Notes under the pieces: model-generated | The model's database searches: none | Told to the model about the DNA's origin: nothing | What the model saw: the letters and a program-made list of their open reading frames with translations, nothing else | DNA from: Patescibacteria group bacterium | GTDB taxonomy: Bacteria; Patescibacteriota; JAQUNI01 | Reading direction: 5' to 3' | Length of the DNA: 64,000 bases | Assembly: GCA_028717685.1 (NCBI GenBank) | Contig: JAQUNI010000001.1 | Coordinates: 54,306-118,305 of the forward strand | Made by a program: the position numbers and the translations under genes | Shown: piece by piece, positions 366 to 63,507 of the stretch | Numbering within the stretch: position 1 is the stretch's first letter | Layout: each line of letters starts with the position of its first letter

Positions 366-436
<71 letters not shown>

Positions 437-873: not shown

Positions 874-2397
874 CTATTTCACAATCTCCCCTCCCAAAAC
901 CTCCAGTGCTTCTTTAGTTAAATTGTTATTCTGTTGCAATTCTACCTTTTCACATTGAATCTGCCATTTGCCACCTAAGATTTGGTCTAAAACCCCTTCC
1001 ACTGTTTTTTTATTGCGGGCTTGAGAAACCATATCCTTATGGAAATCCCGCGGGAAACCCAAAACTAAAGAGCCATCGCGAAAAGCGACTGGCTGGCAGA
1101 GTTTCAAGAAAGCGCACAAAGAATAATTTAAAGGCTCCACCGCCTTTAACACCTCATTCCATTTACCTACCACCTGTTCTAAATTCATTGTCGGCTTTTG
1201 ATATTCGGGTAAGGAAGGAAATGATGTTTTTTCTTCTTTTTCTTCCAGTTTCGGGCTTTGGATTTTTTCCCGCGCTTCCGCTACCTTACCCATTGCTTCA
1301 CTATATTCTATAATGGCTAACTCCAAAGACAATTGAGGAATTAAAGCCGCATCCAAACTATTCTTCGCGGCCATAAAAAGCCTCACTAAATAGGCTAAAC
1401 TTTTCAGAGAGAAATTTTGGGCGCGAGCAACTAATTCTTCTTTTTGGGCAGAAGAAAAAGAAAGCCCGGCGTGATCCAGCAAAGCGGGCTGAACCTTAGC
1501 CAACATCATTCTGCGGAGATAATCAACAAGCTCGTCCGTAAAATTAAATAAGTCTTGACCATTGGCGACAGTCTCATTTACTTTGCGAATAGCTTGCGCA
1601 CTGTCGCAAGAAGCCAGCATATTCACGAAATCTGATATTAAAGACCAATCGACCGTGCCTAAAAAATCAGCCACTTTGCGGAGCTTGAGCTCTTTTTTGG
1701 GCCAAGAGAGAATCTGACCTAAAACACCTTCGGCATCCCGCTCCCCGCCGTCCGCTTTGATGGCGATCAATCTCAAAATCTCGGGGTTTAAAACGCGCTT
1801 CTCCTCCCTTAAAATCCGCGTTAAGCGGTGTTCAATTTCAGCGACGGTCAATTTTTTAAAATCAAATCTCTGACAGCGCGAGAGAATCGTCTCGGGCACT
1901 TCGTGCACCTCTGTCGTCGCTAAAATGAAAAGAGTATGCGGAGGCGGCTCTTCCAAGGTTTTCAAAAGAGCGTTAAAGGCTTCCCGCGTCAACATATGCG
2001 CTTCATCAATAATATAAACTTTAAAACTATCTCTTTGGGGCGCGAAACGCACATTCTCACGGAGAGCGCGAATTTCATTGATGCCGCGGTTGGAGGCGGC
2101 GTCAATCTCAACCAAATCCAATGACCTGCCAGAGGTAATCTCCTGACAACTCGCGCAACGGTTGCAGGGTTCCACCTTTCCGAGCCTGCGTTCGCGCGCG
2201 CTTTTTTTGTTCTGGCAATTAATCGCCTTAGCGAGAATGCGCGCCACGGTGGTCTTGCCAATGCCGCGAGGACCCGCGAAAATATAAGCATGGGCAATCT
2301 TGCCCAAGCTTAACTCATTCTTTAAAGTTTGGATAATGGCAGTCTGTCCTTCCATTTCAGAAAATTTTTGAGGTCTGTATTTACGATATAAAGTCAT
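874..2397 (-). CDS. dnaX: DNA polymerase III subunit gamma/tau
   Basis: 507 aa. Walker A GPRGIGKTT, zinc module CNRCASCQEI, SRC motif LSRCQRF, and N-terminus MTLYRKYRPQKF typical of DnaX. Confidence 0.95.
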   Translation of the reverse strand: MTLYRKYRPQKFSEMEGQTAIIQTLKNELSLGKIAHAYIFAGPRGIGKTTVARILAKAINCQNKKSARERRLGKVEPCNRCASCQEITSGRSLDLVEIDAASNRGINEIRALRENVRFAPQRDSFKVYIIDEAHMLTREAFNALLKTLEEPPPHTLFILATTEVHEVPETILSRCQRFDFKKLTVAEIEHRLTRILREEKRVLNPEILRLIAIKADGGERDAEGVLGQILSWPKKELKLRKVADFLGTVDWSLISDFVNMLASCDSAQAIRKVNETVANGQDLFNFTDELVDYLRRMMLAKVQPALLDHAGLSFSSAQKEELVARAQNFSLKSLAYLVRLFMAAKNSLDAALIPQLSLELAIIEYSEAMGKVAEAREKIQSPKLEEKEEKTSFPSLPEYQKPTMNLEQVVGKWNEVLKAVEPLNYSLCAFLKLCQPVAFRDGSLVLGFPRDFHKDMVSQARNKKTVEGVLDQILGGKWQIQCEKVELQQNNNLTKEALEVLGGEIVK

Positions 2398-2402
2398 AAA
2401 TT

Positions 2403-2439
2403 GGGAATGGGGAATTAAGAATTAGGAATCAGGAATAAG
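2403..2439. repeat. tandem heptamer array (gggaatg gggaatt aagaatt aggaatc aggaata)
   Basis: Period-7 purine-rich array in the dnaX/gtrA spacer. It uses the same word family as 32563-32696 and 47000-47642. No complementary partner lies nearby. Confidence 0.6.
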
Positions 2440-2440
2440 A

Positions 2441-2923
2441 TTACGAATTACTTATATTTTTGCTTGCTTCTTTTTTATTAAACACAAAAAATTTATAGCC
2501 AATAAAATTCCAGATTAAAGAAACCGCGGTAGCCACAACCTTGACCGCGTTCGCCCATAATCCGACCGAGAGCCCGAAATGCGCGCTTACCACGGTAGTG
2601 CCCAAATAAACAATCGAACTGTTAATCCCCATTCCTATAATTGTCACAAAGATAAACTGGGCATATTGAAAAACTGCCCGCTCCTCTCCTTTATATTTGA
2701 AGGCCCACAGGCGATTCCAAAAGAAACTGTTCGTGGAAGCAATCGCGAAAGAGATCGCATTAAAAACGAAAACCGGCCAGCCGCGGTAAATACTAAAAAC
2801 CCACATCTCTAAATTTAAAATCCCGAAGTCAATCGCCGTGTTTATAAAGCCGACAACCACAAAACGCAAGAATTGACCAATAATGGGATACTTTTGCAAA
2901 AGATTTTTATTTTCTGGACCCAT
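2441..2923 (-). CDS. GtrA-family membrane protein
   Basis: 160 aa with four predicted TM helices. N-terminal RFVVVGFINTAIDFGILN is typical of GtrA-like proteins. Confidence 0.8.
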   Translation of the reverse strand: MGPENKNLLQKYPIIGQFLRFVVVGFINTAIDFGILNLEMWVFSIYRGWPVFVFNAISFAIASTNSFFWNRLWAFKYKGEERAVFQYAQFIFVTIIGMGINSSIVYLGTTVVSAHFGLSVGLWANAVKVVATAVSLIWNFIGYKFFVFNKKEASKNISNS

Positions 2924-3025
2924 AATTTTGTTTTATCTGATTAAAATTAAACAATTTTATTTTAACAAAAAAAAGAGAATCCAGCAATTAAAAAGATTCT
3001 TCGTTTCTGAAATTACGAAATAGGC

Positions 3026-3049
3026 AGAGACGCAAGATTTTGCGTCTCT
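3026..3049 (-). terminator. stem-loop immediately after ORF 3051-3746 (AGAGACGCAA family)
   Basis: Perfect 10-bp stem agagacgcaa / ttgcgtctct with loop gatt, starting 1 nt after the stop codon. The downstream U-tract is only moderate (gcctatttcg). Confidence 0.5.
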
Positions 3050-3050
3050 A

Positions 3051-3746
3051 CTACTCCTCATCTACCAATCCTTCCAAACCTTCCAGCTCGCTGTCCAAGT
3101 CATCCACAATCTGACCGGGAACGACTTCTTTCTCTACCTCGGCAGAAGGCACAGCATTCTCATTTCCCCTTTTTTCTACCATATCTTTCAAACTCGTTTT
3201 CTTGATAATATTCTCCACCGCGCCCCATTCGGATTCGCCTTGAGCGGGAATAACCAATGTTACCTCATCACCAGCTTCGCCTTTAAAATAAGTGACGCTC
3301 GCTAATAAAACTTTGTAGGATTTGTTTTCAACAATTACCTGATACTCCCCTTTATCATCCTGGGAAAGCACGCCTAACACCTTTTTACGCTCCACGGGCC
3401 CAATTTGTTTGTAAATAAAAGAACCGTCCTCGGTAATGGTAAGTTTAAGGGTATCACCCTGAATAATCTTGGATTTAGAGGCATAATTGGCAGGCACGGG
3501 GTATTCTGTGTCGTCCGGCGCGACCATACTCTGACCATTGAAAATTCCCTGAATAATCCGCGTTTTTCCCACAGAAGAGGCTAACTCTTGAGCCTTTTCT
3601 ATAATTTGTTTTTTACTGATTTTTGGCTTGGAGCTTTCCACATCTCCCCCCAAAAATTCAGTCAGAACCTTTTTAGCCTGGGAAAGATTGGACTCCGCTT
3701 GCTCTAATATTTCACGAATTAAAGCGATTTTTTCTAAATCTGCCAT
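3051..3746 (-). CDS. hypothetical protein (N-terminal coiled coil, acidic C-terminus)
   Basis: 231-aa ORF with coding-like composition, followed by a stem-loop. No motif recognised. Confidence 0.6.
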   Translation of the reverse strand: MADLEKIALIREILEQAESNLSQAKKVLTEFLGGDVESSKPKISKKQIIEKAQELASSVGKTRIIQGIFNGQSMVAPDDTEYPVPANYASKSKIIQGDTLKLTITEDGSFIYKQIGPVERKKVLGVLSQDDKGEYQVIVENKSYKVLLASVTYFKGEAGDEVTLVIPAQGESEWGAVENIIKKTSLKDMVEKRGNENAVPSAEVEKEVVPGQIVDDLDSELEGLEGLVDEE

Positions 3747-3873
3747 TTTTTTGCAATTTCTCTTTTATTTTATTTTTGGAGAAATTACCTGTTAATTTTT
3801 AGTTTTTGTTTTTGCGACTTTTTGATAAAAATAATATAGCAAAAAAAAGGGGAAAGGTCAATGATTTGCATTT

Positions 3874-3922
3874 GACCCCACTAGAGAAACATGCCCCACA
3901 CGAATTTCTAACGGGGTTGACC
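3874..3922. repeat. CCCCGTTAGAGAA-type palindromic element (imperfect copy)
   Basis: gaccccactagagaaa...tttctaacggggttgacc. The arms ccccactagagaaa and tttctaacgggg are near-complementary. Confidence 0.6.
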
Positions 3923-3999
3923 TTCCAGAAATAAAGTTTTATAATTAATTTAACAGCACGAAACTTGCCTGTACTTTTTGAAGTTAAGACGAATAATGT

Positions 4000-4027
4000 C
4001 CTCCTTCGTTCTAGCGAACTACGGAGG
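4000..4027 (+). promoter_or_regulatory. possible SD-sequestering hairpin upstream of corA
   Basis: cctcc (4000-4004) can pair with ggagg (4023-4027), which is the SD 8 nt upstream of the corA ATG at 4036. An inner stem ttcg/cgaa lies between them. Confidence 0.3.
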
Positions 4028-4035
4028 GCAAAAAA

Positions 4036-4980
4036 ATGAAAACCAAAAAAATCAGAATCATTAAATCTTATAATCTAACTTGGTATGATCTGGAGGCGCC
4101 GGAAGAAAAAGAATATAAATTTTTGCGTGAGCGTTTTCAATTTCACCCCCTAGATATTCAGGACTGCATTTCACCGGTGCAACGCCCTAAGATGGAAGAA
4201 TATAATCACTATATTTTTTTAATTGTCCGCATACCCTTCTACCAAAAGGAGGAGAGAGTGATTCGCGCTATGGAGATAGATATCTTTGTGGGGCAAAATT
4301 ATCTCGTTACCGCGCATCAGGGCAAAAGCACTACCTTGAAAGACTTTGTCCGCGAATGCCACGATTATCGCACGATTCGGGAAAAATATTTTCAATTTGG
4401 ACCTGGCTTCTTATTATATGAAATCTTAAACCGGATGTTTGACCGCTGCTATTCTCTCCTTGACGCCGTAGGTAGCGAAATTGACCGCGTGGAAAATAAA
4501 ATGTTCAAAGGCCAGGAAGGAGAGATCGTGGAAATCATCGCGGGAATCAAGAGAAATGTAATCAATCTACGCAAAATCATGAAAGCGCACGGACCACTGA
4601 TGAAAAGATTAATCAACAACGAAAAATTCTTTTTAAATTTAAACGGCGCCCGCTTTAACAACAAGGACATTCTTTTTGATAATCTTTCAGACAAGGTCCA
4701 AGACATCTGGGACATCCTTGACGGCCATACGGAAACGATTGCCGCTTTAGAGACTACGAATGAAAATCTGATTTCTCATCGTTTGAATGAAATCATGAAA
4801 ACCCTCACGATTGTCTCATCTATCCTTTTACCAGCAGCGTTGGTGACACAAATCTTCGGCATGTCCTACGACAACGCGCCTCTTTTAACCAATCGGATCG
4901 GATTCATTATTGTTTTCCTTTTAATCTTCTTTTTACCGCTTACTCTCATTCTTTTTTTCAAAAAGAAAAAATGGTTGTAA
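4036..4980 (+). CDS. corA: CorA-family divalent cation transporter (variant GMS motif)
   Basis: 314 aa with a cytoplasmic N-domain and two C-terminal TM helices. The inter-helix loop reads FGMSYDN where the CorA consensus is YGMNF. Confidence 0.85.
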   Translation: MKTKKIRIIKSYNLTWYDLEAPEEKEYKFLRERFQFHPLDIQDCISPVQRPKMEEYNHYIFLIVRIPFYQKEERVIRAMEIDIFVGQNYLVTAHQGKSTTLKDFVRECHDYRTIREKYFQFGPGFLLYEILNRMFDRCYSLLDAVGSEIDRVENKMFKGQEGEIVEIIAGIKRNVINLRKIMKAHGPLMKRLINNEKFFLNLNGARFNNKDILFDNLSDKVQDIWDILDGHTETIAALETTNENLISHRLNEIMKTLTIVSSILLPAALVTQIFGMSYDNAPLLTNRIGFIIVFLLIFFLPLTLILFFKKKKWL

Positions 4981-5084
4981 AATTGATTGACTTACGTTAT
5001 ATTATAAAGGCAGCTTTTTAAAAAATAGCTGTCTTTATTAGTTATGTGCTGTTGGCAAAGAATACCGGAAAGGAGGGATAACTG

Positions 5085-5789
5085 ATGCACCTTGCAAAAA
5101 CTACGGCGGCACTCCATATGGGTTCCGAGCTAATCGGTAAAATATACAGAACCCAAGGAGGCTTAGCGCTAAGGATCGTGCGCGTGGTTCATCAATGGCC
5201 AATTTTCAAATGGGTCACAGCGGATATATTGACAGCAATGCGTATGGTAATTGCATTTACCAATGTCTTGCTGTTTATCCTAGGAATAAAATGGGGCTTA
5301 AAGAATTTTCTTCCTTTCTTGCTAAGCCTTACCATTATTGCCTATGGATCCGACCTCTTTGACGGACAAATGGCCCGCTTGGAAGTAGAAGAAGGGAAAA
5401 AGAAAAAAGATACAAATTTTGGTCCTTGGTTTGACAATATGGCGGACAAAGCCGTATGCATACCAAGTATGTTTTTCATAATGTGGTTGCGGAGAGTTTA
5501 TCTTGCGCCGATTGCAATGCTAATCGTAGATATCACTTTGGGAATTTTTCGCTGGGTGATTGCTCGGAAATATAAAATCCAGCTTAGCGCTAATCATTAT
5601 GGAAAATTCAAAACATGGTTGCAGGGTTTTAGTATCAATTTTGTTTTAGTAGACTACCTTATTCCGGGTATTGGACAGGTGGGATATTACATTTTGCTCT
5701 TTGGGGCTATCCCTGTAGGCATATTAAGCTTCCTAAAACATTATCAGAATGCATATCCTCAAATCAAGAGAGCGCAAAACGGGCTTTGA
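5085..5789 (+). CDS. CDP-alcohol phosphatidyltransferase family protein
   Basis: Multi-TM 234-aa ORF. DLFDGQMAR...GPWFDNMADK matches DG(x2)AR...G(x3)D(x3)D with a Lys-rich insertion. SD ggaaaggaggg lies upstream of the ATG. Confidence 0.6.
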   Translation: MHLAKTTAALHMGSELIGKIYRTQGGLALRIVRVVHQWPIFKWVTADILTAMRMVIAFTNVLLFILGIKWGLKNFLPFLLSLTIIAYGSDLFDGQMARLEVEEGKKKKDTNFGPWFDNMADKAVCIPSMFFIMWLRRVYLAPIAMLIVDITLGIFRWVIARKYKIQLSANHYGKFKTWLQGFSINFVLVDYLIPGIGQVGYYILLFGAIPVGILSFLKHYQNAYPQIKRAQNGL

Positions 5790-18019: not shown

Positions 18020-18064
18020 TTTTTTTACTATTTATCAAAATTTAATAATTTTCCCTGCGAAAAA

Positions 18065-18176
18065 TTTTCAATTTTCAATTTCTAATTTTTATTAAATTTT
18101 TAATCTTAAAATTTTTAAACATTTAAAATTGATTTATTGAAAATTTAATAAAAATTGAAAATTAGAAATTAAAAAT
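18065..18176. repeat. heptamer-array hairpin element, copy 1 (ttttcaa/tttctaa words)
   Basis: A 17-nt perfect inner stem (aatttttattaaatttt, about 18084-18100, against about 18141-18157) sits inside arms of about 36 nt. The element is about 91-93% identical by eye to 19932-20085. Confidence 0.75.
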
Positions 18177-18181
18177 TACTT

Positions 18182-19933
18182 ATGAAATGGCTCACTAAAT
18201 TTGCTCCTCCTCTTCTGATCACTATAATAGTTTTGGTTTCCTTTTTTTCGGTCCAAAAAGATTCCGCGATTATGGATGAGGTCGCCCATATCCCTGCTGG
18301 CTATTCCTACCTGAAATTTGGAGACTACCGCTTAAATCCCGAGCATCCCCCTTTAGCGAAAATGCTGTCCGCTCTTCCTCTCCTTTTCTTGCACCTCCAA
18401 TTCCCCTTAAACCATCCCACTTGGACAACCGACGTGAATGGTCAATGGGAAGCGGGATATCAGTTTTTATACCACCTTGGCAATGACGCGGATCAAATAC
18501 TCTTTTGGTCGCGCCTGCCGATTATCGCTCTTTTAATCTTGCTGGGGATCTATGTCTGGAAATGGGCAAAAGAGCTCCTGGGGGCAAAATGGGCGCTGGC
18601 GGTTCTGTTTTTGTATGCTTTCTCTCCCACGATTATTGCCCATAGCCACTATGTGACCACTGATTTAGCCGCAACATGTTTTATCTTTATCGCCTTTTAT
18701 TATTTTGTTCATTATTTAAAAAAACCGAGCCTTAAGAATACTCTTTTGGCTGGTCTTGCTCTGGGCTTAGCCGAGGTCGCTAAATTTTCGGCGGTTCTTC
18801 TTTTCCCGTGTTTTGTTCTCCTTGCCCTTATTCCCCTCCTTTTAAACAGGTCTCCCCAAACTTCTTGGCTCAAGCAAACAAAAAACCATATCGGCAAATT
18901 TATCCTCATTTGTTTGATCGCGCTCGGAGTAATCCTTATTGTCTATCAACCCGCGGTCTGGGCTTTCAATTTAGAAAAACAACAAGAATTAATCCGCGGT
19001 TCTATCGGACCGGAAAAAATTGAAAATATTGTGCTCGCTATAAGTAAAATCCCAGGAGCGCAAGGTTTTGCCCAATATATCTTGGGCGTTGTGATGGTCT
19101 TTGCCCGCGTGGGAGGCGGCAACACCAATTACTTCTTGGGTCAGGTTTCTAATCAAGGGTGGTGGTATTATTTCCCAACCTGTTTTTTTCTAAAAGAAAC
19201 AATTTCGGTCTTAATCTTAACAGGATTAGCTTTGCTTTTTGTGATTCGCAAATTTGTCATCAATCTCGTAAAAGACCGTCCGCGCAAATGGCTTCCTTGG
19301 TTTAGGGAATACGCGCTTTGTCATCTGGCGGAAATCTCAATGGTAGTTTTTATCATTGTTTATGGGGTAGTCAGCATGAGAGGCAAACTGAACTTAGGCG
19401 TCCGCCACATTATGGTCCTTTTCCCCTTTATCTATATTTTAATCATTAAAGAATTCAAACGGCGTATAGCAGAAACTGCCTATAAAAAACTTTTCACAGG
19501 AATATTGATTGTTCTCCTTGTTTGGGTTGGCGTGGAAGTCACGATAAATTATCCTTCGTACCTTGCTTATTATAACGAGCTTGGTGGCGGTCCGAAGAAT
19601 GGCTATAAATTGATCACAGATTCCAATCTGGACTGGGGGCAGGATTTAAGACGTATGGCGGAATGGGTGAACGCCAATCCTGAAATCTCAAAAATTAAAG
19701 TAGATTATTTTGGCGGCGGAGTGCCCTCTTATTATCTTGGCGATAAATATCAAGAATGGCATTCGCAAAATGGACCAACAACGGGTTGGATTGCTGTCAG
19801 CGCAAATTATTTTTCTGAAAGTATTTATCGCAAAGATTCCACCTTTGCCACCTCTTACTATTATCTAGAATTAAAAAAGCCCGAAAAAATCTTCGGGCAT
19901 TCCATATTTGTGTATTATATACCGGAGGAATAA
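18182..19933 (+). CDS. GT39-family phospholipid-carrier-dependent glycosyltransferase
   Basis: 583 aa, multi-TM. DEVAHIPAGYSYL ... NPEHPPLAKML is typical of the PMT_2 / GT39 family. Confidence 0.75.
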   Translation: MKWLTKFAPPLLITIIVLVSFFSVQKDSAIMDEVAHIPAGYSYLKFGDYRLNPEHPPLAKMLSALPLLFLHLQFPLNHPTWTTDVNGQWEAGYQFLYHLGNDADQILFWSRLPIIALLILLGIYVWKWAKELLGAKWALAVLFLYAFSPTIIAHSHYVTTDLAATCFIFIAFYYFVHYLKKPSLKNTLLAGLALGLAEVAKFSAVLLFPCFVLLALIPLLLNRSPQTSWLKQTKNHIGKFILICLIALGVILIVYQPAVWAFNLEKQQELIRGSIGPEKIENIVLAISKIPGAQGFAQYILGVVMVFARVGGGNTNYFLGQVSNQGWWYYFPTCFFLKETISVLILTGLALLFVIRKFVINLVKDRPRKWLPWFREYALCHLAEISMVVFIIVYGVVSMRGKLNLGVRHIMVLFPFIYILIIKEFKRRIAETAYKKLFTGILIVLLVWVGVEVTINYPSYLAYYNELGGGPKNGYKLITDSNLDWGQDLRRMAEWVNANPEISKIKVDYFGGGVPSYYLGDKYQEWHSQNGPTTGWIAVSANYFSESIYRKDSTFATSYYYLELKKPEKIFGHSIFVYYIPEE

Positions 19934-20085
19934 ATTTCTAATTTTCAATTTCTAATTTCTATTAAATTTTTAATTTTAAAATTTTCAAACACCATTAGAA
20001 ATGAAAAATTTCTAGACGGGATAAACCTTTTAAAAATTAATTCATTAGAAATTTAATAAAAATTGAAAATTAGAAATTGAAAATT
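19932..20085. repeat. heptamer-array hairpin element, copy 2 (direct repeat of 18065-18176)
   Basis: It has the same arms as copy 1. Its loop carries about 50 extra nt, including a degenerate ttagaaat...atttctag palindrome (19991-20020). Confidence 0.75.
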
Positions 20086-21136
20086 ACTTATAATACACCA
20101 ATCCCTGCACCCTTAAATCAATATAGTATTTAATTTCTTTATTATTTTTCCCAATATCCTCTTTGAAAACTAAGGTTAAAGCTTCAAGTTGGTTTTGCAA
20201 GCTCTGTCTAGTGTCAAAAAATATTTGATAACCTTTGTCCGTTTTTATATACAAGTCGCGGGAATCAGAAATCGGCACAATGAATTCTTGGATTTTCAAA
20301 TCCGTCTTTAGAGATAACAAATCCCGCACTTGAAAAAGGAAACTTAAAAAAGAGGGGTCTAAAATCTGCTCGCGCGGTTCTACTTTTTTAAAAGACTGAT
20401 CATAAAGAACGGGTAATCCCTTTTCCCATACCGTTTCCTCGGGAATTTCCTCGCCGATTATTCCTTCCGCATCTAAAAAGTGATAAAGAATAGTGGGATT
20501 TTCGGGATAGGAGGTTGGAGTCAAGATGGCTTGTGACTCTTTATCTTTAACTTCCCCGATTTCCTCCCTACTCGTAGAATCACTGGCAAAAGCTTCAGGG
20601 GGTAAAAATAAATCCTGCGGCGCGCCATTTGCCCAAATCGCTTTCGGCTCCCTCTCGGTAATGATAATTTTTAAAACATCGGGGAATTCTTTTTTAATGT
20701 CTATTTTCTCAATCTGGGCAAAATGGGCATAGATTACGCTGCTTAAATGCTTTTTACCCGCAATAATCAAATTTTCTTTGGGAAAAATAAAGGCGCGTCC
20801 CTTTAAATTCTCGCGCGCCAAATTTTCCACATCTTCACCCTTGACATTAACATTGCCTACCACTACAATCTCCTTGATTTGCCAGAACGGAAAAAAGAAT
20901 AAAAAATAAACAAGCGAACCTAACGCAAGCAAAAAAAGGAAAAAGGCAATTTTCCGCTGCAAATGTCCCGAAGCCTCGCGGACGCGAAAACGAGGAGTCG
21001 CGAGATAAATCCTCGGGCTCGCTAAGGTCCGCTTTTTCCTAAAAAACCCGCGTTTCCACTCCACTTTCCTTTTGCGGGATTTTTGTTTATACGGGTTTAA
21101 GTATAATTTTTTGCGGCTGGGTTTATGAGAAAACAC
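20084..21136 (-). CDS. FtsQ/DivIB-like cell division protein (POTRA domain)
   Basis: 350 aa with a basic N-tail, a single TM, then the POTRA-like WQIKEIVVVGNVNV...LKIIITEREPKAIW. The ORF-track start is GTG. Confidence 0.65.
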   Translation of the reverse strand: MFSHKPSRKKLYLNPYKQKSRKRKVEWKRGFFRKKRTLASPRIYLATPRFRVREASGHLQRKIAFFLFLLALGSLVYFLFFFPFWQIKEIVVVGNVNVKGEDVENLARENLKGRAFIFPKENLIIAGKKHLSSVIYAHFAQIEKIDIKKEFPDVLKIIITEREPKAIWANGAPQDLFLPPEAFASDSTSREEIGEVKDKESQAILTPTSYPENPTILYHFLDAEGIIGEEIPEETVWEKGLPVLYDQSFKKVEPREQILDPSFLSFLFQVRDLLSLKTDLKIQEFIVPISDSRDLYIKTDKGYQIFFDTRQSLQNQLEALTLVFKEDIGKNNKEIKYYIDLRVQGLVYYK

Positions 21137-57312: not shown

Positions 57313-59061
57313 ATGAAGGACAAATTAAAAAACGATACAGTCAATTCCAACGGGGTGAAATTTGACGACAAAACAATAAAGAAGATTCTCTTAAAAGGGA
57401 ACTATATTACTGAAGAAGATGTTAAGAACGCGGATGATTTTGCCACAACGCACCAAGTGTCATTCATAGGGTATCTGCTCCAAGAAAATCTCATCACCAA
57501 GGACCTCTTGGGGCAGGCGATTGCCGAATCGTTCAAGGTTCCCTACGCTGACTTAAATTCAGCACCACCCGCACCTCTGCAGGTGCAAAAAATTCCGGAG
57601 GAGACCGCGAAAAAATATCACGCGGTTATTTTCGCTGAAGAAAAAAACAAAACCGTAGTCGCCACCGATAATCCAGAAGATCCAACACTCCTGCCGGAAT
57701 TAGAAAAGCTGTTTGTCGGCAGGAGGTTGAGCATTGTCTATTCGCTGACCGAGGACATCAACGCGAGCTTTGTGCATTATCAAAAGCCGCTTGAAACCCG
57801 CTTCTCTAAGATTATTGAGAGCAAAGGGCGAGTCGCGCCAGAGCTTTTGGAAGAAATTTTTGATGACGCGCTCGTATATCATGCCTCCGACATCCATTTT
57901 GAACCCAGGCAGAAAGATGTGCTTGTGCGGTTTCGCATTGACGGCGTTTTACAAGAAACCGGCAGGATCCCCAAAGAATATTACGAAAATATTCTTAATC
58001 GCATCAAGGTGCAAAGCGGTTTGCGCATTGATGAACACTTTGCCGCGCAAGACGGTTCGCTCCGGTATGAACCCTCCTCCTTTAAAGCTTCCTCCTACGC
58101 TAACGCTCCAGCGGGCAAAAAGGATAGCGTTGTTGTTGACCTTAGAACCTCAGTTGTCCCCACTGTTGAAGGAGAAAAAGTGGCATTGCGCGTACTCTCG
58201 GCATATGTGCAAGGATTTTCTCTTGGTGATCTTGGTCTTTCGCCGGCACATCAGCAGATACTTGAGCAAGCCGCCACAAAACCATTTGGCATGATTCTCG
58301 TAGCAGGTCCCACTGGTTCCGGAAAAACCACTACGCTTTACGCACTTTTGAAACTTGTAAATAGCCCAGAGGTGAACATCACCACTATTGAGGACCCGGT
58401 GGAGTACAGGGTGCTCGGCGTGAATCAAATTCAAATCAATCCTCTAACAAATCTCACTTTTGCCAAAGGACTGCGTTCTATCGTCCGCCAAGACCCGGAT
58501 ATTATTCTGGTCGGCGAGATTCGCGACGAAGAAACAGCAGAAATCGCCGTAAATGCGGCACTCACCGGCCATCTTCTCTACTCCACATTTCACGCCAACG
58601 ATGCCGCTACCGCCATTCCTCGGCTTCTGGATATGGGCATTGAACCGTTTCTTTTGGCTTCCACGCTTGAGGTTATTGTCGCCCAGCGACTCGTGCGTAA
58701 AATTTGCGAACATTGCCGGCATAGTGTTACCAAATCGGCAAATGATTGGAAGACGCCTCAGCTTCGGTCAGTTATGCCATATCTTTCCAAAAAGTCGATC
58801 ACGCTCTATGAAGGGAAGAAGTGCGAGATGTGCGGCTATACGGGGTACAAAGGACGAACTGCTATTTTTGAATTCATCCAAATCACTCCGGAGATGCGGA
58901 ATCTCATCTTACACTCCCCGTCAACTAAAGAAATCTGGCAACTCGCCAGTAAGGATGGTTCAAAAACACTTTTTGAAGACGGCATTGAAAAAGTTAAGAC
59001 TGGAGTAACCACAATAGAAGAGCTGCTTCGCGTCGCCGAACCGCCGCAGAAGAGTGGGTAG
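57313..59061 (+). CDS. pilB: type IV pilus assembly ATPase (GspE/PilB family)
   Basis: 582 aa. Walker A GPTGSGKTT, Walker B DPDIILVGEIRD, His box TGHLLYSTFH, and a tetracysteine CEHC...CEMC. Confidence 0.9.
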   Translation: MKDKLKNDTVNSNGVKFDDKTIKKILLKGNYITEEDVKNADDFATTHQVSFIGYLLQENLITKDLLGQAIAESFKVPYADLNSAPPAPLQVQKIPEETAKKYHAVIFAEEKNKTVVATDNPEDPTLLPELEKLFVGRRLSIVYSLTEDINASFVHYQKPLETRFSKIIESKGRVAPELLEEIFDDALVYHASDIHFEPRQKDVLVRFRIDGVLQETGRIPKEYYENILNRIKVQSGLRIDEHFAAQDGSLRYEPSSFKASSYANAPAGKKDSVVVDLRTSVVPTVEGEKVALRVLSAYVQGFSLGDLGLSPAHQQILEQAATKPFGMILVAGPTGSGKTTTLYALLKLVNSPEVNITTIEDPVEYRVLGVNQIQINPLTNLTFAKGLRSIVRQDPDIILVGEIRDEETAEIAVNAALTGHLLYSTFHANDAATAIPRLLDMGIEPFLLASTLEVIVAQRLVRKICEHCRHSVTKSANDWKTPQLRSVMPYLSKKSITLYEGKKCEMCGYTGYKGRTAIFEFIQITPEMRNLILHSPSTKEIWQLASKDGSKTLFEDGIEKVKTGVTTIEELLRVAEPPQKSG

Positions 59062-59498
59062 TAGGATTAGTTGGTAGTTTGTAGTGAGTAGTTAGTAGTA
59101 AATATGAAAATTGAATCGTACGAAAATTTAATTGTGTGGCAAAAGTCAATGGATCTGGTGATTGCTGTTTATGCATTGACAGAAAAATTTCCAAAAGAAG
59201 AACTATACGGTTTAACTTCACAAATGCGCCGCGCAACTGTTTCAGTTCCTTCCAATATTGCGGAAGGTAGTAGGCGTGGTTCTCGAAAAAATTTTAGAAA
59301 TTTTTTACTCAATGCGTATGGTTCCAGTGCAGAGCTTGGGACTCAGATCAAAATCGCGAAACGGCTTTCATACGGAAAAACCAAAAATTATGAGCAAGCG
59401 GATGCACTGCTTGATGAAGTAATGCGCATGTTAGACAAATTGACGTATGGGCTCAAAGAATAAAAGTCTACAAACTACCAACTACAAACTACAAACTA
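59059..59498 (+). mobile_element. hairpin-loop four-helix-bundle cassette (IVS-like), copy 2
   Basis: 59068-59084 tagttggtagtttgtag is the exact reverse complement of 59468-59484 ctacaaactaccaacta (17 bp). ORF 59104-59463 fills the loop. Confidence 0.65.
59104..59463 (+). CDS. four-helix-bundle protein (23S rRNA intervening-sequence protein / Avd-like family)
   Basis: 119 aa. YENLIVWQKSMDL, FPKEELYGLTSQMRRATVSVPSNIAEG. It differs from ORF 61765-62124 at 10 of 119 residues. Confidence 0.9.
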   Translation: MKIESYENLIVWQKSMDLVIAVYALTEKFPKEELYGLTSQMRRATVSVPSNIAEGSRRGSRKNFRNFLLNAYGSSAELGTQIKIAKRLSYGKTKNYEQADALLDEVMRMLDKLTYGLKE

Positions 59499-60886
59499 TC
59501 TTCCTAGGCAAAGAACGGGACTATTTTATTGAGAATTTAAGCATGCTGGTCGCCGCTGGCATGCCGATTTTGGGCGTTCTCGACTCCATTGCCAAAGAAC
59601 TGCGCTCGCGCCGCATGAAAAAAATTCTTGCTCTTATTCGGGAATATATTGAATCTGGCTCGCCAATTTGGAAAGCGCTTCAAACAACTAACCTGTTTGC
59701 CGACCACACTATCTCGCTTATCCGCCTTGGCGAAGAATCGGGAAAGCTTACGGAGAACTTAAAAGTGGTCGCGAATGAACAAGAAAAAAATCGGGTGTTC
59801 CACTCCAAGCTTCGTTCCGCCATAATGTATCCTGTATTCGTACTCTCACTCACGGTCATTATCGGTGTGGGCATTGCGTGGTTTATTTTGCCCAAGCTGG
59901 CGCTGGTGTTTGCCCAGCTTAAAATAACCTTGCCCCTTATCACAAAAATTTTGATCGGATCGGGAACATTTCTTGGCGAATATGGCCAATACGTCGTGCC
60001 CGCGGCAGTTATAGCAATATCAGTTATTTTTTTCTTTATTTTCTCATTTCCAAAAACAAAATTTATCGGGCAATTTATTTTATTTTCTTTGCCCGGCGTT
60101 AAACAACTTATTAAGGAAGTGGAGCTGGCGCGGCTCGGTTATCTTTTAGGCACGCTTCTTGACGCTGGACTGCCGGTAACCCAAGCGCTCAACTCGCTCG
60201 CAAGCGCTACCGAGATTGCGCCATACAAAAAACTCTACAAACACCTGCGCGACTCGGTAGAAGACGGCAATCCGTTCCGGAAAAGCTTTATTTCCTTTAA
60301 GCGCACTAATCATCTTATTCCCGAACCTATTCAGCAACTCATCGTCGCTGGTGAACAGTCAGGCACTCTTTCAGCAACTCTTCTTAAAATCGGAGAGACT
60401 TATGAAGCTAAAGCGGACACGACGACAAAAAATTTGACCGTGATTCTGGAGCCGATATTACTCGTCATCGTGTGGCTCGGCGTTGTAGCCGTGGCGTTAG
60501 CAGTGATTTTGCCAATCTACAGCCTTATCGGCGGATTTAACGCCAACCAGCCCGCAGCGGCACAGCCTCCTCCTGCCGAAGAACAGGTAATCAGTCCGCC
60601 GCCAAGTGTGGAAACAACAGCTCCAGATACAGAAACCGTGGAAGTAATACCCCCTCCGGATACAGAAATCATAGAGAAAAAACCAACAACGCTCCGCGTT
60701 CTTCCCACTAGCGTAGGGTATCTTAACGTGCGCGAGAAACCATCATTAACAAGTAAAATCGTCACGCGCGTTAAGCCGGGTGAAACATTTGAATACACTG
60801 AAAAAAACGAGAGCTGGTATAAAATTATTTTGCCGGATGGCAATTCCGGATGGGTGTTTGAAAAATATGTTGAAGAAAATGAATAA
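59447..60886 (+). CDS. pilC: type IV pilus platform protein (GspF/PilC family) with C-terminal Pro-rich linker and SH3b-like domain
   Basis: 479 aa. Two T2SSF-type repeats (FIENLSMLVAAGMPILGVL and LGYLLGTLLDAGLPVTQAL) and three TM helices. The C-terminal YLNVREKPS...SWYKIILPDGNSGWVFEKYV is SH3_3-like. The ATG lies 17 nt inside the preceding ORF. Confidence 0.85.
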   Translation: MGSKNKSLQTTNYKLQTIFLGKERDYFIENLSMLVAAGMPILGVLDSIAKELRSRRMKKILALIREYIESGSPIWKALQTTNLFADHTISLIRLGEESGKLTENLKVVANEQEKNRVFHSKLRSAIMYPVFVLSLTVIIGVGIAWFILPKLALVFAQLKITLPLITKILIGSGTFLGEYGQYVVPAAVIAISVIFFFIFSFPKTKFIGQFILFSLPGVKQLIKEVELARLGYLLGTLLDAGLPVTQALNSLASATEIAPYKKLYKHLRDSVEDGNPFRKSFISFKRTNHLIPEPIQQLIVAGEQSGTLSATLLKIGETYEAKADTTTKNLTVILEPILLVIVWLGVVAVALAVILPIYSLIGGFNANQPAAAQPPPAEEQVISPPPSVETTAPDTETVEVIPPPDTEIIEKKPTTLRVLPTSVGYLNVREKPSLTSKIVTRVKPGETFEYTEKNESWYKIILPDGNSGWVFEKYVEENE

Positions 60887-60892
60887 ACAAAA

Positions 60893-60998
60893 CTAACAAA
60901 TGACACATAACATCTGACACATGACATTTGACACATATGAAACAAAAAAAATTATAGGAAAATAAAAGGGCATCGTCAGATGTTAGGTATCAGATGTT
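60893..60998. repeat. heptamer-array hairpin (ctgacac/atgacat words)
   Basis: The left array is ctaacaa atgacac ataacat ctgacac atgacat ttgacac. 60909-60932 pairs with 60975-60998 at about 19/24 positions. Confidence 0.65.
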
Positions 60999-61013
60999 CC
61001 AAAAGGGTTTACC

Positions 61014-61309
61014 CAGCACCACTTTTTAGATTATAAACATGTATTACGTCTATACCTTAATTAGTAAGTTAAAAAATAAGACAGAAATATATATTGGATC
61101 AACAAATGATCTGAGAAGAAGACTAAGAGATCATAATAATGGTAAAGAAAGATCTACAAAACGTTATAGGACGTGGAATCTGATTTACTACGAAGCATAT
61201 ATAACAGAGAGTCTAGCAAGATTAAGAGAAAAACGATTGAAACATCACGGAAATGCGATGAAAGAATTAAAAAAAAGAATCGGATTATCCGAATGGAAAA
61301 GTGGTGCTG
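61014..61309 (+). mobile_element. GIY-YIG nuclease-carrying element with 13-bp terminal inverted repeats and 8-9-bp flanking direct repeat
   Basis: 61014-61026 cagcaccactttt is the exact reverse complement of 61297-61309 aaaagtggtgctg. ggtttacc lies immediately outside both ends (61006-61013 and 61310-61317). Confidence 0.6.
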
Positions 61310-61731
61310 GGTTTACCTTGCTGGAAGTTCTTCTCTCTATCGCGGCGATCGCGATTATCGCCGTAATTTCTATTCCCATTTATCAGTCGTTTCAGGTGCG
61401 AAACGATCTTGATATCGCGACCATGGAAATTGCCCAAACTTTGCGGCGCGCGCAAGTACTTTCCCAAGCGGTTGATGGCGACACAAGCTGGGGCGTTTCT
61501 CTCGCAAGCGGAAATATCACGCTTTTTAAGGGCGTAAGTTACGCCACCCGCGATACCAATTTTGATGAAGTGTTTGATGTATCAACAAATATCACTCCAT
61601 CGGGACCTTCCGAAATCGTGTTTGTAAAATTTACAGGCTTACCACAGACCACGGGGACAATAATGCTATCCTCCAATATGAATGAAACGAGAAATATAGT
61701 AATTAACCAGAAGGGAATGGTTAATTATTAG
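61039..61731 (+). CDS. GIY-YIG nuclease domain fused in frame to a type IV pseudopilin (GspH/FimT-like)
   Basis: 230 aa with no internal stop. Residues 1-85 read YYVYTL..IYIGSTNDLRRRLRDHNNG..YYEAY..REKRLK (GIY-YIG). Then comes KSGAG|FTLLEVLLSIAAIAIIAV (class III signal with E5). An internal Met74 lies at 61258. Confidence 0.8.
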   Translation: MYYVYTLISKLKNKTEIYIGSTNDLRRRLRDHNNGKERSTKRYRTWNLIYYEAYITESLARLREKRLKHHGNAMKELKKRIGLSEWKSGAGFTLLEVLLSIAAIAIIAVISIPIYQSFQVRNDLDIATMEIAQTLRRAQVLSQAVDGDTSWGVSLASGNITLFKGVSYATRDTNFDEVFDVSTNITPSGPSEIVFVKFTGLPQTTGTIMLSSNMNETRNIVINQKGMVNY

Positions 61732-62158
61732 TTGGTAGTTTGTAGTGGGTAGTTGGTAGTAAATATGAAAATTGAATCATACGAAAATTTAATTGTGTGG
61801 CAAAAGTCAATGGATTTAGTGATTGCTGTTTATGCATTGACAGGAAAATTTCCAAAAGCAGAACTATACGGTTTAACTTCACAAATGCGCCGCGCGGCTG
61901 TTTCAATTCCTTCCAATATCGCGGAGGGGAGCAGGCGCGGTTCTCGGAAGGATTTTAGAAATTTTTTACTCAATGCGTATGGTTCTGGTGCAGAGCTTGA
62001 AACTCAAGTTAAAATTGCGAAACGACTTTCATACGGAAAAACCAAAGATTATGAGCAGGCGGACGCGCTGCTCGATGAAGTAATGCGCATGTTAAACAAA
62101 TTGACGTATGGGCTCAAAGAATAAAAATCTACCCACTACAAACTACAAACTACCCACT
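61729..62158 (+). mobile_element. hairpin-loop four-helix-bundle cassette (IVS-like), copy 3
   Basis: 61735-61752 gtagtttgtagtgggtag is the exact reverse complement of 62129-62146 ctacccactacaaactac (18 bp). ORF 61765-62124 fills the loop. Confidence 0.65.
61765..62124 (+). CDS. four-helix-bundle protein (23S rRNA intervening-sequence protein / Avd-like family)
   Basis: The start is taken at the ATG homologous to 59104 (MKIESYENL). The ORF track begins at a TTG (61753) inside the hairpin arm. Confidence 0.9.
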   Translation: MKIESYENLIVWQKSMDLVIAVYALTGKFPKAELYGLTSQMRRAAVSIPSNIAEGSRRGSRKDFRNFLLNAYGSGAELETQVKIAKRLSYGKTKDYEQADALLDEVMRMLNKLTYGLKE

Positions 62159-62746
62159 CAACAAGGCTTCAGCCTTGTTGAAGTTATTCTCGCCAGCGCG
62201 GTGTTTGTTTTGTTCGTTACCGCGCTTGTCGGAGCGTACCTCTATGGGCAGGAGTCAACCGCGCTTGCCGGCAATCGCGCGCGCGCGACGATTCTTGCCG
62301 AAGAAGGGCTTGAGGCAGTGCGCAATATCCGCGATGCCGGATTTTCTAATCTCACCGACGGCACCTACGGATTGGCTGTTGTCGGCAACCAATGGGCGTT
62401 ATTCGGAACATCAGACACAACGGGTATTTTTACCCGCCAAATTACAATTTCCGCTGTAGATTCAGAACGAAAAAGCGTGACTGCGAATGTCGCTTGGCAA
62501 CAAAATGCCCAGCGCCCGGGAGCAGTTGCCCTGACGACCTATCTTACTAACTGGAAAAAGGCGACTCCTGTCAATTCCTGCGATATTTACTGCCAGTTGT
62601 TGGGAACCTATACCACTGGTACCTGTCGGGAAAATTCCCAACAATGTACTAAGTATGACGAGATTTATGAGGCGGGCGGTGATCCTATTTGTGTGACTAG
62701 TTTTCCTGGCGACGCCAGCCATGATACTTGTTGCTGCAAACCATAA
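62108..62746 (+). CDS. type IV pseudopilin with cysteine-rich C-terminal domain
   Basis: MGSKNKNLPTTNYKLPTQQG|FSLVEVILASAVFVLFV is a class III signal with E5. There are 8 Cys in the last 57 residues. The ATG lies 17 nt inside the preceding ORF. Confidence 0.75.
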   Translation: MGSKNKNLPTTNYKLPTQQGFSLVEVILASAVFVLFVTALVGAYLYGQESTALAGNRARATILAEEGLEAVRNIRDAGFSNLTDGTYGLAVVGNQWALFGTSDTTGIFTRQITISAVDSERKSVTANVAWQQNAQRPGAVALTTYLTNWKKATPVNSCDIYCQLLGTYTTGTCRENSQQCTKYDEIYEAGGDPICVTSFPGDASHDTCCCKP

Positions 62747-62755: not shown

Positions 62756-62814
62756 TAGTTTGTAGTGAGTAGTTGGTAGGTTGTAGTTTTCTACTCACTA
62801 CTCACTACAAACTA
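62756..62814. repeat. unoccupied heptamer hairpin between pseudopilin genes
   Basis: 62756-62772 tagtttgtagtgagtag is the exact reverse complement of 62798-62814 ctactcactacaaacta (17 bp). The 25-nt loop contains a small gtag tttt ctac stem. Confidence 0.8.
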
Positions 62815-62823
62815 CAAACTAAC

Positions 62824-63348
62824 ATGCTACCAACTACAAACTACCAACTACAAACCCAGCGTGGCTTCACGCTAATTGAACTGCTTCTCTATGTTGCCGT
62901 TGCGTCGGCGATACTTTTGGCGATTTCGGTTTTTCTTTCAATCCTCCTTCAGTCGCGCATCAAAAATCAAACTATCGCTGAAGTGGAACAGCAGGGGCTT
63001 CAAGTTATGCAACTCGTTACGCAAACCGCGCGCAACGCCGAGGCAATCACCTCGCCAGCGCAGGGCGCAAGCGCTTCATCTTTGACGCTTGACGTTATTT
63101 CTGCTGCCAGTGACCCCACTATTTTTGATCTCGCAAGCGGCGCGATTCGCGTCAAAGAAGGGGCTGGTTCAGCTACCGCTCTTACTAATTCTCGCGTTAC
63201 CGCTTCCGCTCTCACATTCCAAAATCTCTCTCGCACCGACACTCCGGGCACGGTTCGCGTCCAATTCACCCTCGCACATACAAATCCAGAAGGCAGAAAT
63301 GAATACTCATTTACTAAAACATTTATCGGCTCTGCGAGCCTGCGCTAG
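62824..63348 (+). CDS. type IV pseudopilin (GspJ/PulJ-like)
   Basis: The start is taken at the ATG giving MLPTTNYQLQTQRG|FTLIELLLYVAVASAILL. The ORF track begins at a TTG (62773) inside the hairpin. Confidence 0.75.
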   Translation: MLPTTNYQLQTQRGFTLIELLLYVAVASAILLAISVFLSILLQSRIKNQTIAEVEQQGLQVMQLVTQTARNAEAITSPAQGASASSLTLDVISAASDPTIFDLASGAIRVKEGAGSATALTNSRVTASALTFQNLSRTDTPGTVRVQFTLAHTNPEGRNEYSFTKTFIGSASLR

Positions 63349-63370: not shown

Positions 63371-63477
63371 ACGACTGACACTTGATACCTAGCACCTGAC
63401 AACTGACCACTAACATCTAACATTTTGTTAGGTGTCAGATGCCAAATGTCAGGTGTTAGGTGCTAGGTGTCAAGTGT
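63371..63477. repeat. long heptamer-array hairpin (ctgacac ttgatac ctagcac ctgacaa ctgacca ctaacat)
   Basis: The outer stem 63376-63395 acacttgatacctagcacct pairs with 63458-63477 aggtgctaggtgtcaagtgt at 19/20. The inner arms are imperfect, with loop tttt near 63423-63426. Confidence 0.75.
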
Positions 63478-63507
63478 TAATTGTATAGAACCAGGTTATT
63501 CACACTC

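Follow-up and report, generated by a model that had tools for sequence, protein, structure and literature searches.

Insertions in conserved genes are known in several forms. Non-intron insertions that carry GIY-YIG or 23S_rRNA_IVP open reading frames (ORFs) were reportedly found in the ribosomal RNA (rRNA) genes of Patescibacteria by Brown et al. in 2015. Likewise, Ogata et al., in 2000, are said to have described Rickettsia palindromic elements (RPEs), i.e., short palindromes that are inserted in frame in protein-coding genes and are translated. Here we analyze a 296-bp element in a 64-kb stretch of DNA from a Patescibacteria genome (contig JAQUNI010000001.1; the whole stretch is called the window below). 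The element consists of two terminal inverted repeats around the gene for an 81-aa GIY-YIG nuclease, and it lies in a pilin gene, at the codons for the prepilin cleavage site, within a region that ORF calling and Pfam establish as a type IV pilus operon. Insertions in rRNA genes have since been surveyed (PMC11270868): GIY-YIG and 23S_rRNA_IVP ORFs occur in non-intron insertions of Patescibacteria rRNA genes, the mobility of which was left open, and 23S intervening sequences are cut by RNase III. That survey does not mention an association with pilins.

These rRNA insertions resemble the window's element in having a homologous GIY-YIG ORF (44-57% identity), a unit of ~285-305 bp and related repeats that form the closing stem. 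The stem around an optional ORF that typifies rRNA intervening sequences is present here, whereas the location in an rRNA helix is not, the host being a pilin gene. Further differences are that the host codes for protein, that the insertion is translated in frame, that a clear 9-bp direct repeat is present and that miniature copies fill several pilin genes of one locus. Moreover, RNase III acts on RNA in the case of rRNA insertions, whereas neutralization here would be by a peptidase acting on protein.

Inteins with homing endonucleases are similar in that they place an in-frame selfish nuclease at a conserved site and are removed after translation. However, their nucleases are of the LAGLIDADG or HNH types rather than GIY-YIG, and the window's element has no Hint or splicing domain (a Pfam scan found no Hint domain, and a 296-bp unit is too small for a ribozyme), its removal being apparently outsourced to a host enzyme. 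Such removal would need no religation, because the insert is N-terminal to the host's cleavage site. Nuclease-less copies of 30-100 bp, described below, behave like RPEs. However, RPEs stay in the mature protein and occur at many sites, whereas these copies occupy one site, in a segment that is to be cleaved off, and an associated nuclease gene is known for them. Phage GIY-YIG homing genes (Seg, I-TevI) and T4 mobA/gene 60 also combine a nuclease by or in a conserved gene with a device that spares the host. The phage enzymes have separate DNA-binding domains and lack terminal inverted repeats, unlike the element here, and T4 gene 60 depends on ribosomal bypassing rather than on read-through and proteolysis.

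In our literature searches, we found no description of prepilin leaders that contain GIY-YIG genes, miniature elements or elements with inverted repeats. The components are known, namely GIY-YIG rRNA insertions, in-frame palindromic elements and in-frame homing nucleases in inteins. Their combination, with a fixed target at a signal-peptide cleavage site and with removal left to a host peptidase, appears to be new. The same nuclease-pilin arrangement is present in dozens of Patescibacteria pilin genes. The explanation that we favor, and consider probable, is that the window holds a 296-bp selfish GIY-YIG element belonging to a pilin-targeting branch of the rRNA intervening-sequence family, that this element spreads in a homing-like manner, and that the precursor protein it creates is cleaved by the prepilin peptidase. 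The element and its surroundings are arranged as follows (an arrow, ↓, marks the prepilin cleavage position or a junction throughout).

60992-61026 / 61297-61331, + strand: extended imperfect stem, 35-nt arms, 80% complementary
60994-61013, + strand: remnant of the pilin start and short leader, ATG TTC CAA AAG GGT TTA CC
61005-61013, + strand: left direct repeat GGGTTTACC, remnant G-F-T codons
61014-61026, + strand: left terminal inverted repeat CAGCACCACTTTT, pairing exactly with 61297-61309
61027-61038, + strand: TAG in the nuclease/pilin frame and an A/T-rich 9-nt spacer before the nuclease ATG
61039-61731, + strand: nuclease::pilin fusion ORF, 230 aa, open without a stop
61039-61281, + strand: GIY-YIG nuclease domain, residues 1-81, SLX1/UPF0213 type (Pfam, AlphaFold2, Foldseek)
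61282-61311, + strand: linker, residues 82-91, GLSEWKSGAG, ending in Gly-1 and mostly encoded by the right inverted repeat
61297-61309, + strand: right terminal inverted repeat AAAAGTGGTGCTG; exact pairing reaches 61297-61312
61309-61317, + strand: right direct repeat GGGTTTACC, functional codons Gly-1 ↓ Phe+1 Thr+2
61312-61731, + strand: mature minor pilin, GspH/EpsH type, 139 aa and stop
Empty-site duplex target sequence: ..AAAGGGTTTACCTTGCTGGAAG..

An earlier note on this DNA, made from its letters and ORFs, had described the ORF at 61039-61731 as joining a complete GIY-YIG domain to a pilin. This holds: the 230-aa frame is open, and two Pfam models score above their cut-offs, PF01541 (GIY-YIG) at residues 1-75 (E=1.7e-16, 60.7 bits vs. 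22.6) and PF07963 (N_methyl) at residues 90-111 (E=1.2e-4, 21.9 bits, just above the threshold of 21.2). In the AlphaFold2 model (mean pLDDT 91.5), a compact nuclease of residues 1-81, with pLDDT mostly above 90 and the GIY-YIG fold beta-beta-alpha-alpha-beta-alpha, is followed by a linker of residues 82-93, which holds Gly91↓Phe92 and is the lowest-confidence segment (pLDDT ~65). The pilin part then begins with a long N-terminal helix (94-144) and ends in a beta domain.

Foldseek matches the C-terminal domain to the minor pseudopilins EpsH and GspH, and the N-terminal domain, weakly (E 0.005-0.1), to UPF0213 BH0048 (1zg2), SLX1 and HIGLE. The closest solved sequences and folds are those of SLX1/UPF0213 (YhbQ, BH0048; SLX1 E=0.018; Foldseek identity 27-35% over ~75 residues). 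These are likewise minimal domains, but they are cellular enzymes that are not found on repeat-flanked insertions. In an alignment of 22 family members, Y3, G20, R28, H32 and E52 are invariant and V4, Y5 and Y18 nearly so; the motif YIGST..RRLRxHN aligns with SLX1, and E52 would by analogy be a metal ligand. In the C-terminal part, the hallmarks of pilins are present, i.e., Gly-1, Phe+1, Glu+5 and a hydrophobic N-terminal helix (..KSGAG↓FTLLEVLLSIAAIAIIAVISIP), as are the EpsH/GspH fold and the context of pilus genes, with pilB, pilC and further pilins adjacent. Instead of a short basic leader (~5-30 aa; 4-6 aa in orthologues), the protein has a leader of 91 aa with a folded domain. The NCBI name of the protein is "GIY-YIG nuclease family protein".

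The ORF cannot extend upstream, because there is a TAG in its frame within 61027-61038. As the earlier note had it, the pilin's frame has a TAG at 60984-60986 and no ATG upstream, and the in-frame ATGs are those of Met1 (61039) and Met74 (61258). The context of the ATG at 61039 is A/T-rich, which is typical for genes of this genome. Only 7 of the window's 48 long ORFs have a Shine-Dalgarno-like 4-mer upstream, and start regions are A/T-rich, so start-codon calls are uncertain in this genome. The exact 230-aa protein recurs in two further independent assemblies. Both are Logan assemblies of different sequencing runs, and they match the window base for base, one over 59435-61809 and the other over 59878-61809. 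An assembly error is thereby excluded as the source of the read-through.

Orthologue comparisons were drawn from the 1082 relatives found in a search with the whole protein. Orthologous pilins are mostly ~144 aa long, with leaders of 4-6 aa (MKNAG↓, MSKG↓, MNKG↓, etc.) and an empty site. Two of the closest relatives of the window protein (P0001) are unfused, P0006 and P0007, and their mature pilins are 83% and 82% identical to its own, while the fused P0002 reaches 76%. Where the empty sites of two of the closest relatives were compared (ATG AGT AAA GGA TTT ACA CTT CTT GAA in one, ..CAG GGC TTC ACG CTT CTT GAA in the other), the pilin ATG lies 1-3 nt after the pilC stop; in the window, 425 nt of inserted DNA separate pilC from the first mature-pilin codon. 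Besides P0001 there are six fused pilins (P0002-P0005, P0023 and P0053), and the nearest relatives of fused pilins are unfused, save for the sister pair P0003/P0004. The two parts of the fusion also have discordant identities: P0001 and P0053 share 71% in the nuclease and 35% in the pilin, whereas P0001 and P0003 share 54% and 65%, respectively.

In several loci, the original leader can still be recognized. In one of them (L001) it is intact and in frame before the left arm (MKNSG↓FT, ATG AAA AAT AGC GGC TTT ACC), and the nuclease lacks a separate ATG and uses the start codon of the pilin; the layout is ATGAAAAATAGCGGCTTTACC↓CCGCACCACTTTT..nuclease..AAAAGTGGTGCGG↓GGTTTACA, then TTA ATT GAA. 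Seven other loci keep a short leader directly left of the left repeat: L026 (MVRRG↓FT), L032 (MRRG↓FT), L023 (MVIDKKG↓FT), L031, L010, L021 and L002. In the window, the remnant at 60994 would read MFQKG↓FT given one more A/T; as it stands, its frame differs by 1 nt from that of GGG TTT ACC.

This comparison among genes shows the nuclease element to be an insertion in a pilin gene at the codons for Gly-1↓Phe+1-Thr+2. The earlier note's proposal of a repeat-flanked mobile element at the cleavage codons is thus borne out by empty sites, by unfused nearest pilins and by relatives with the same repeats. It had suggested a search of relatives for copies of the inverted repeat and for empty sites, and both were found; it had also named fused relatives without repeats as the case that would speak for an old fusion, and the fused relatives carry inverted and direct repeats at the same site.

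That we are dealing instead with an ancient two-domain protein whose nuclease serves the pilus, e.g., in DNA uptake, or else with a sequencing or assembly artefact, is in our judgment scarcely credible. The fusion is widespread, and Patescibacteria are believed to rely on DNA uptake through pili, both of which would suit an old fusion. However, the nuclease is upstream of the cleavage site and hence cytoplasmic, and we take the empty orthologous sites, the polyphyly of the fused pilins, the discordant identities and the remnant leader to rule out an ancient domain fusion. An artefact is excluded by the identity of three independent assemblies.

We return to the explanation by a mobile element, and to its wider family. 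A scan with a GIY-YIG alignment, using one genome per species, returned 80 loci. All homologues with at least ~59% identity (~25 distinct genomes) carry the arms ACCC[A/C]GCACCAC and GTGGTGC[T/G]GGGT, and downstream of each lies a pilin whose junction reads ..(K/R)SGAG↓FT(L/I)(I/V)E. Homologues below 57% identity have neither the exact arm pair nor a downstream pilin, and most of them have variant arms in RNA genes. There are three layouts: arms around the nuclease, as in the window; the nuclease followed by a complete hairpin; and an extra left arm with right-arm remnants between. The layouts with an extra left arm are best explained by successive insertions into a copy of the repeat. When 1.84 billion representative proteins were searched exhaustively, 311 hits had E <= 1e-10. 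Among the best 150 representatives, 88 have at least 180 aa and an N-terminal nuclease, and all 40 of these 88 that were examined are nuclease::pilin fusions, with very different pilins. Their leaders measure 80-132 aa, and 35 of the 40 show the junction xSGAG↓FT. A methionine occurs at position 74 in 15 of these 40 fusions and in two of seven fused orthologues. Since it is not conserved, Met74 is unlikely to be the pilin start in general, and the alternative raised in the earlier note, of a pilin made from Met74 with a short leader, did not stand up.

As to carriage by phages, viral contigs gave 107 single 15-mer hits, none of them paired, which is about the chance number by a rough estimate; we rejected this idea. 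Four loci with the element (L010, L011, L026 and L030) are typical Patescibacteria pilus loci in records labelled Gammaproteobacteria or Methylomirabilis, for which mis-binning is possible.

Nuclease-less copies of 28-102 bp share these arms and sit at the G-F-T site in other pilins, and a locus often has more than one (five in L028, three in L011 and three in L033). They are either open in frame (MPTQKKGFTPHQIGAKPQTGAG↓FTLIELLVV) or have their own ATG (MDFHPKKFP..LLKSGAG↓FT). By a scan for exact patterns, at least 120 metagenome contigs carry such miniatures. The pilin frame is open through the whole miniature element in all 36 non-redundant cases that have a recognizable pilin N-terminus, and in 19-20 of 27 loci the nuclease ORF is continuous with the pilin, in the same frame. 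Taken together, these counts show that, at most loci, the in-frame arrangement is selected. The copies in L028 show, insofar as their sequences record it, an element spreading within one genome. In that locus, positions 1900-4900 hold five ~101-bp nuclease-less copies and two nuclease copies at successive pilin genes, and the second nuclease is apparently frameshifted.

The earlier note had reported a 13-nt inverted repeat. Its coordinates and exactness stand, but the exact repeat is in fact 16 nt (61011-61026 / 61297-61312), and imperfect pairing reaches 35 nt. Pairing continues beyond 13 nt because the direct repeat's GGT..ACC is self-complementary. Therefore, the boundary between inverted repeat and duplication is ambiguous (13+9, 15+4 or 16+2). 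Given the CC with which the arms start and the GG(G) with which they end, 9, 4 and 2 bp are all possible lengths of the duplication. The direct repeat GGGTTTACC, also reported in that note, is indeed present at both ends, with the right copy encoding G↓FT. The 13-nt inverted repeat has just these two exact copies in the window. In Markov shuffles, 0.84 perfect 13-nt inverted repeats with a spacing of 100-500 nt are expected for each window; a 16-mer with an adjoining 9-bp direct repeat is much less likely to arise by chance. In the window as a whole, GGGTTTACC occurs four times (0.41 expected), and the copies at 27173 and 49403 do not correspond to pilin N-termini.

GGNTTYACC is the usual form of the left direct repeat among 41 related elements. 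In one locus (L022), the host protein has the pilin-like start G↓QMMLSL, and the element is flanked by GCGCAAA↓CC.. and ..GG↓GCAAATG; two elements in L011 carry TTC/TTC and TTT/TTT repeats. In these two loci, the flanking sequences show that the direct repeat follows the local target. The Phe wobble bases of the left and right copies are also associated (Fisher p=0.03, for sequences that are phylogenetically non-independent). The idea that the direct repeat is a mere by-product of the palindrome, or is carried by the element, is partly true, given the ACC/GGT ends, but the repeats in L022 and L011 follow the target.

These observations bear on the possibility of a true transposon, cut-and-paste or copy-and-paste, which would make a staggered cut in GGG↓TTTA↓CC and a duplication of 2-9 bp by means of the GIY-YIG protein or an unlinked transposase, with miniatures mobilized in trans. 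We consider this unlikely. Terminal inverted repeats with a direct repeat that matches the local target are what it predicts, as are the many short non-autonomous copies and tandem arrays, and the repeat sequence is conserved far above synonymous sites. GIY-YIG enzymes such as I-TevI leave 2-nt staggered ends, which would also fit. Insertion sequences (IS) and miniature inverted-repeat elements (MITEs) share with the window's element terminal inverted repeats, an apparent short duplication, and autonomous and miniature forms. However, the element's sole ORF encodes the 81-aa GIY-YIG protein, which is not a known transposase (DDE, serine, tyrosine or HUH), and no DDE, serine or tyrosine recombinase is found in or beside any element examined. 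The element has a single target and a single orientation (27 of 27 nuclease-bearing copies are oriented identically relative to the pilin), and it is far below the size of any autonomous IS. Moreover, to our knowledge, GIY-YIG enzymes hydrolyze DNA and are not known for strand transfer, and no clear duplication was seen at the flanks of the relatives in rRNA genes. It is important to consider that the length of the direct repeat is ambiguous between 2 and 9 bp and that an origin by repair would yield the identical pattern. The transpositional footprint proposed in the earlier note is therefore present as a set of repeats, while transposition is one mechanism among several, given the missing transposase, the constant orientation and the ambiguous boundaries.

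A homing-like spread, which we prefer, has to be reconciled with the conservation of the arms. These co-vary perfectly across loci, with nine compensated variants, e.g., CAGCACCAC with GTGGTGCTG, CCGCACCAC with GTGGTGCGG, CCGCCCCAC with GTGGGGCGG and CAGCACCAT with ATGGTGCTG. The three bases outside the 13-nt repeat also stay paired, with G-U tolerated (ACC/GGT in 30 cases, ATC/GAT in 6, ATC/GGT in 3 and ACC/GAT in 2). Since pairing is kept outside the 13-nt repeat, the stem itself, beyond any protein-binding sequence, seems to matter. In the predicted RNA, this stem closes the whole nuclease ORF (minimum free energy, MFE, -87.3 kcal/mol; z=-5.8) and is present in both the MFE and the centroid structure.

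Several readings of this hairpin were rejected. It has no U-run after the stem, and no intrinsic terminator is predicted there. An Rfam scan of the window gave only tRNA, so neither a group I or II intron nor another known RNA was found. A resemblance of the repeat (..GCACCA) to a tRNA 3' end found no support. Ribosomal bypassing between the GGG TTT ACC copies is contradicted by the lack of an in-frame start upstream in the window and by most related copies being open in frame. A scan for promoters gave matches at chance level only.

Distant homologues of the nuclease (44-57% identity) form units of ~285-305 bp with the variant arms CCGCACCTTTT with AAAAGGTGCGG and CAGCCCCAGTTTT with AAAACTGGGGCTG. 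Their hosts are 16S rRNA genes in L042, L048, L058 and L065 and 23S rRNA genes in L044, L050 and L078. In L063, L076 and L081, sub-threshold Rfam matches (E 2.6e-12 to 1.7e-4) indicate that the host is probably RNase P RNA. These distant homologues in RNA genes, together with the survey of rRNA insertions (PMC11270868), lead us to regard the window's element as a pilin-targeting branch of that family, specialized on the best-conserved DNA of pilin genes.

We note some details of these relatives. In L063, L076 and L081 (~2730-3430), the arms are of the CAGCCCCAG type or CCCCACCAC, the sequence ..ACAGAATTCGGCTTATAGG is also RNase-P-like, and the flanks have a short GTG(T/C)C repeat with a 2-nt offset; in L076, there is a second nuclease copy ~60 nt downstream. 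In L058, a group I intron (4573-5360) lies at the 3' end of the 16S rRNA gene, and the same gene has the GIY-YIG insertion near its 5' end.

This ancestry raises the question of whether the stem is a site for RNase III, such that the transcript is cut and nuclease and pilin are expressed from separate RNA fragments. We consider this very improbable. The homology to stem-flanked rRNA insertions, the strongly predicted stem and the cutting of 23S intervening sequences by RNase III (PMC11270868) would all be in keeping with it. However, a cut in the right arm would leave a pilin without a start codon and a nuclease message without a stop codon, and the in-frame nucleases and open miniatures counted above point to selection for translation through the element.

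The nuclease ORF is intact in 26 of 26 loci tested, with a median dN/dS of 0.15, and these substitution patterns show that it is under purifying selection. Such selection could be taken to mean that the module benefits its host, either through breaks at pilin 5' ends that drive recombination among paralogues or through an RNA stem over the start region that tunes expression. In addition to the selection on the nuclease, this idea can draw on the close and exclusive link between this subfamily of nucleases and pilin genes in ~25 genomes, on the strong predicted stem with its pairing kept beyond the repeats (G-U tolerated), and on the several hairpin-bearing pilin genes per locus. Moreover, a report on Neisseria describes nuclease-initiated, microhomology-based pilin variation (PMC13321361). 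Nevertheless, we consider a host benefit improbable: most orthologous pilins manage without the module, close relatives of the nuclease are in rRNA and RNase P RNA genes, where such a role is inapplicable, and the patchy distribution and discordant phylogeny suit a parasite better.

For the selfish element that we favor instead, we propose the following course. Translation would start at the element's own ATG (61039) and yield a 230-aa pilin precursor with type II membrane topology, in which the nuclease is cytoplasmic and the pilin helix serves as the anchor. Prepilin peptidase acts at the cytoplasmic face and mainly needs Gly-1. It would cut after Gly91, giving a normal mature pilin and a free 91-aa nuclease. 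The element would be tolerated because the peptidase removes anything that precedes Gly-1, and the insertion would cost the host little because cleavage frees a normal pilin. In this sense, the comparative evidence supports the earlier note's central idea of the leader region as a safe harbour. The cleavage would be a proteolytic counterpart of the removal of introns and inteins and of the trimming of rRNA intervening sequences by RNase III.

As to mobility, the nuclease may break unoccupied GGNTTYACC sites, or structures there, and repair of the break may then copy the element from an occupied pilin gene. On the right, the conserved coding sequence of the pilin N-terminus would provide the homology arm; on the left, the retained repeat would provide microhomology. 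Such breaks and copying would account for a site and an orientation that do not vary and for the left copy of the repeat being kept. The inverted repeats might be inherited from an rRNA ancestry in which a stem was needed, or they might form a structure that is recognized by an SLX1-like enzyme. As with homing genes, the element recurs at one site (G-F-T, in ~25 genomes), has empty orthologous sites and has a nuclease whose history disagrees with that of its host gene; on the other hand, it is housed in neither a self-splicing intron nor an intein, nor is it free-standing between genes. A broader claim can be made, that a selfish nuclease uses the prepilin cleavage site as its "splice site" while being expressed from the pilin's signals, and so opened a third, proteolytic route to phenotypically silent insertion besides RNA splicing or trimming and protein splicing, that it radiated over many Patescibacteria pilin genes from the ancestry of rRNA intervening sequences with miniatures in its wake, and that leaders of 80-130 aa with a folded enzyme are routine substrates of the peptidase. 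To our minds, this broader claim is evenly balanced between right and wrong.

It is important to emphasize that several points weigh against the explanation that we favor. Homing alone does not explain the conservation of the inverted repeats or the pairing outside them. We know of no demonstration that leaders of ~90 aa with a folded domain are cleaved, and no prepilin peptidase (A24) gene was found in the 64-kb window; in the related loci L004 and L007, such a gene is beside the pilins. Sequence-specific homing enzymes are not typically 81-aa GIY-YIG domains that lack a DNA-binding domain, and the nearest solved relatives of this one, SLX1 and UPF0213, are structure-specific or uncharacterized. 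Since the 9-bp target survives insertion, immunity must rest on a longer site or on a structure. Finally, there is just one copy of the element in the window. Synonymous divergence between copies of different genomes is near saturation (dS at least 0.75), so there is no direct sign of recent movement.

If the explanation is nevertheless correct, selfish DNA has a new way of hiding in essential, conserved genes that relies on a host protease, and the GIY-YIG and four-helix-bundle rRNA insertions of Patescibacteria are linked to elements of protein-coding genes. For pilus biology, it would mean that prepilin peptidases accept leaders of ~90-130 aa with a folded domain, which might also become a tool for co-expressing and releasing cytoplasmic cargo. 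A 9-bp target, repeats of 13-16 nt and an 81-aa enzyme would make a tractable system for studying mobility. There are also consequences for annotation: many mis-annotated "GIY-YIG nuclease family proteins" of 190-370 aa would really be prepilins, and pilin starts in these genomes would be systematically mis-called.

The pilus operon around the element has the following further features.

57313-59061: pilB
59104-59463: 23S_rRNA_IVP four-helix-bundle gene of a first cassette
59447-60886: pilC
60893-60998, + strand: empty hairpin of a separate, ACATCTGACAC-type repeat family, between pilC and the remnant pilin start
61765-62124: 23S_rRNA_IVP four-helix-bundle gene of a second cassette
62108, 62773, 63481: further pilins after the second four-helix-bundle gene

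The hairpin at 60893-60998 is part of the 425 nt of inserted DNA, which orthologues lack. The two cassettes, at 59066-59500 and 61727-62160, are 92% identical, and in each the 23S_rRNA_IVP gene is closed by ~30-nt inverted repeats of heptamers (TAGTTGGTAGTTTGTAG.. / ..CTACAAACTACCAACTA). Both pilC (59447) and the pilin at 62108 start inside these cassettes and read out through the right arm, with resulting N-termini of MGSKNK(S/N)L(Q/P)TTNYKL(Q/P)T. Thus the four-helix-bundle cassettes supply a start codon and read-through like the nuclease element does, even at a gene that does not encode a pilin, and they represent the other type of cargo that is known from rRNA intervening sequences.

The remaining gaps of the pilus operon are all filled by empty long hairpins with heptamer-like repeats (60893-60998, 62756-62855 and 63371-63484), and the reading frame of the pilin at 62773 continues through one of these (MVGCSFLLTTHYKLQTNMLPTTNYQLQTQRG↓FTLIELL). 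Elsewhere, orthologous pilins likewise have ..SYKLQA.. or ..TTNYNLQP.. in their leaders. Outside the pilus operon, there are perfect inverted repeats of 17-20 nt, of the AATTTCTAATTTTCAATTT type, at 18063-18170 and 19933-20086. A third, divergent four-helix-bundle gene, 23S_rRNA_IVP-like and 44% identical to the other two, directly adjoins the sole tRNA gene of the window (365-436 and 482-817, both on the - strand).

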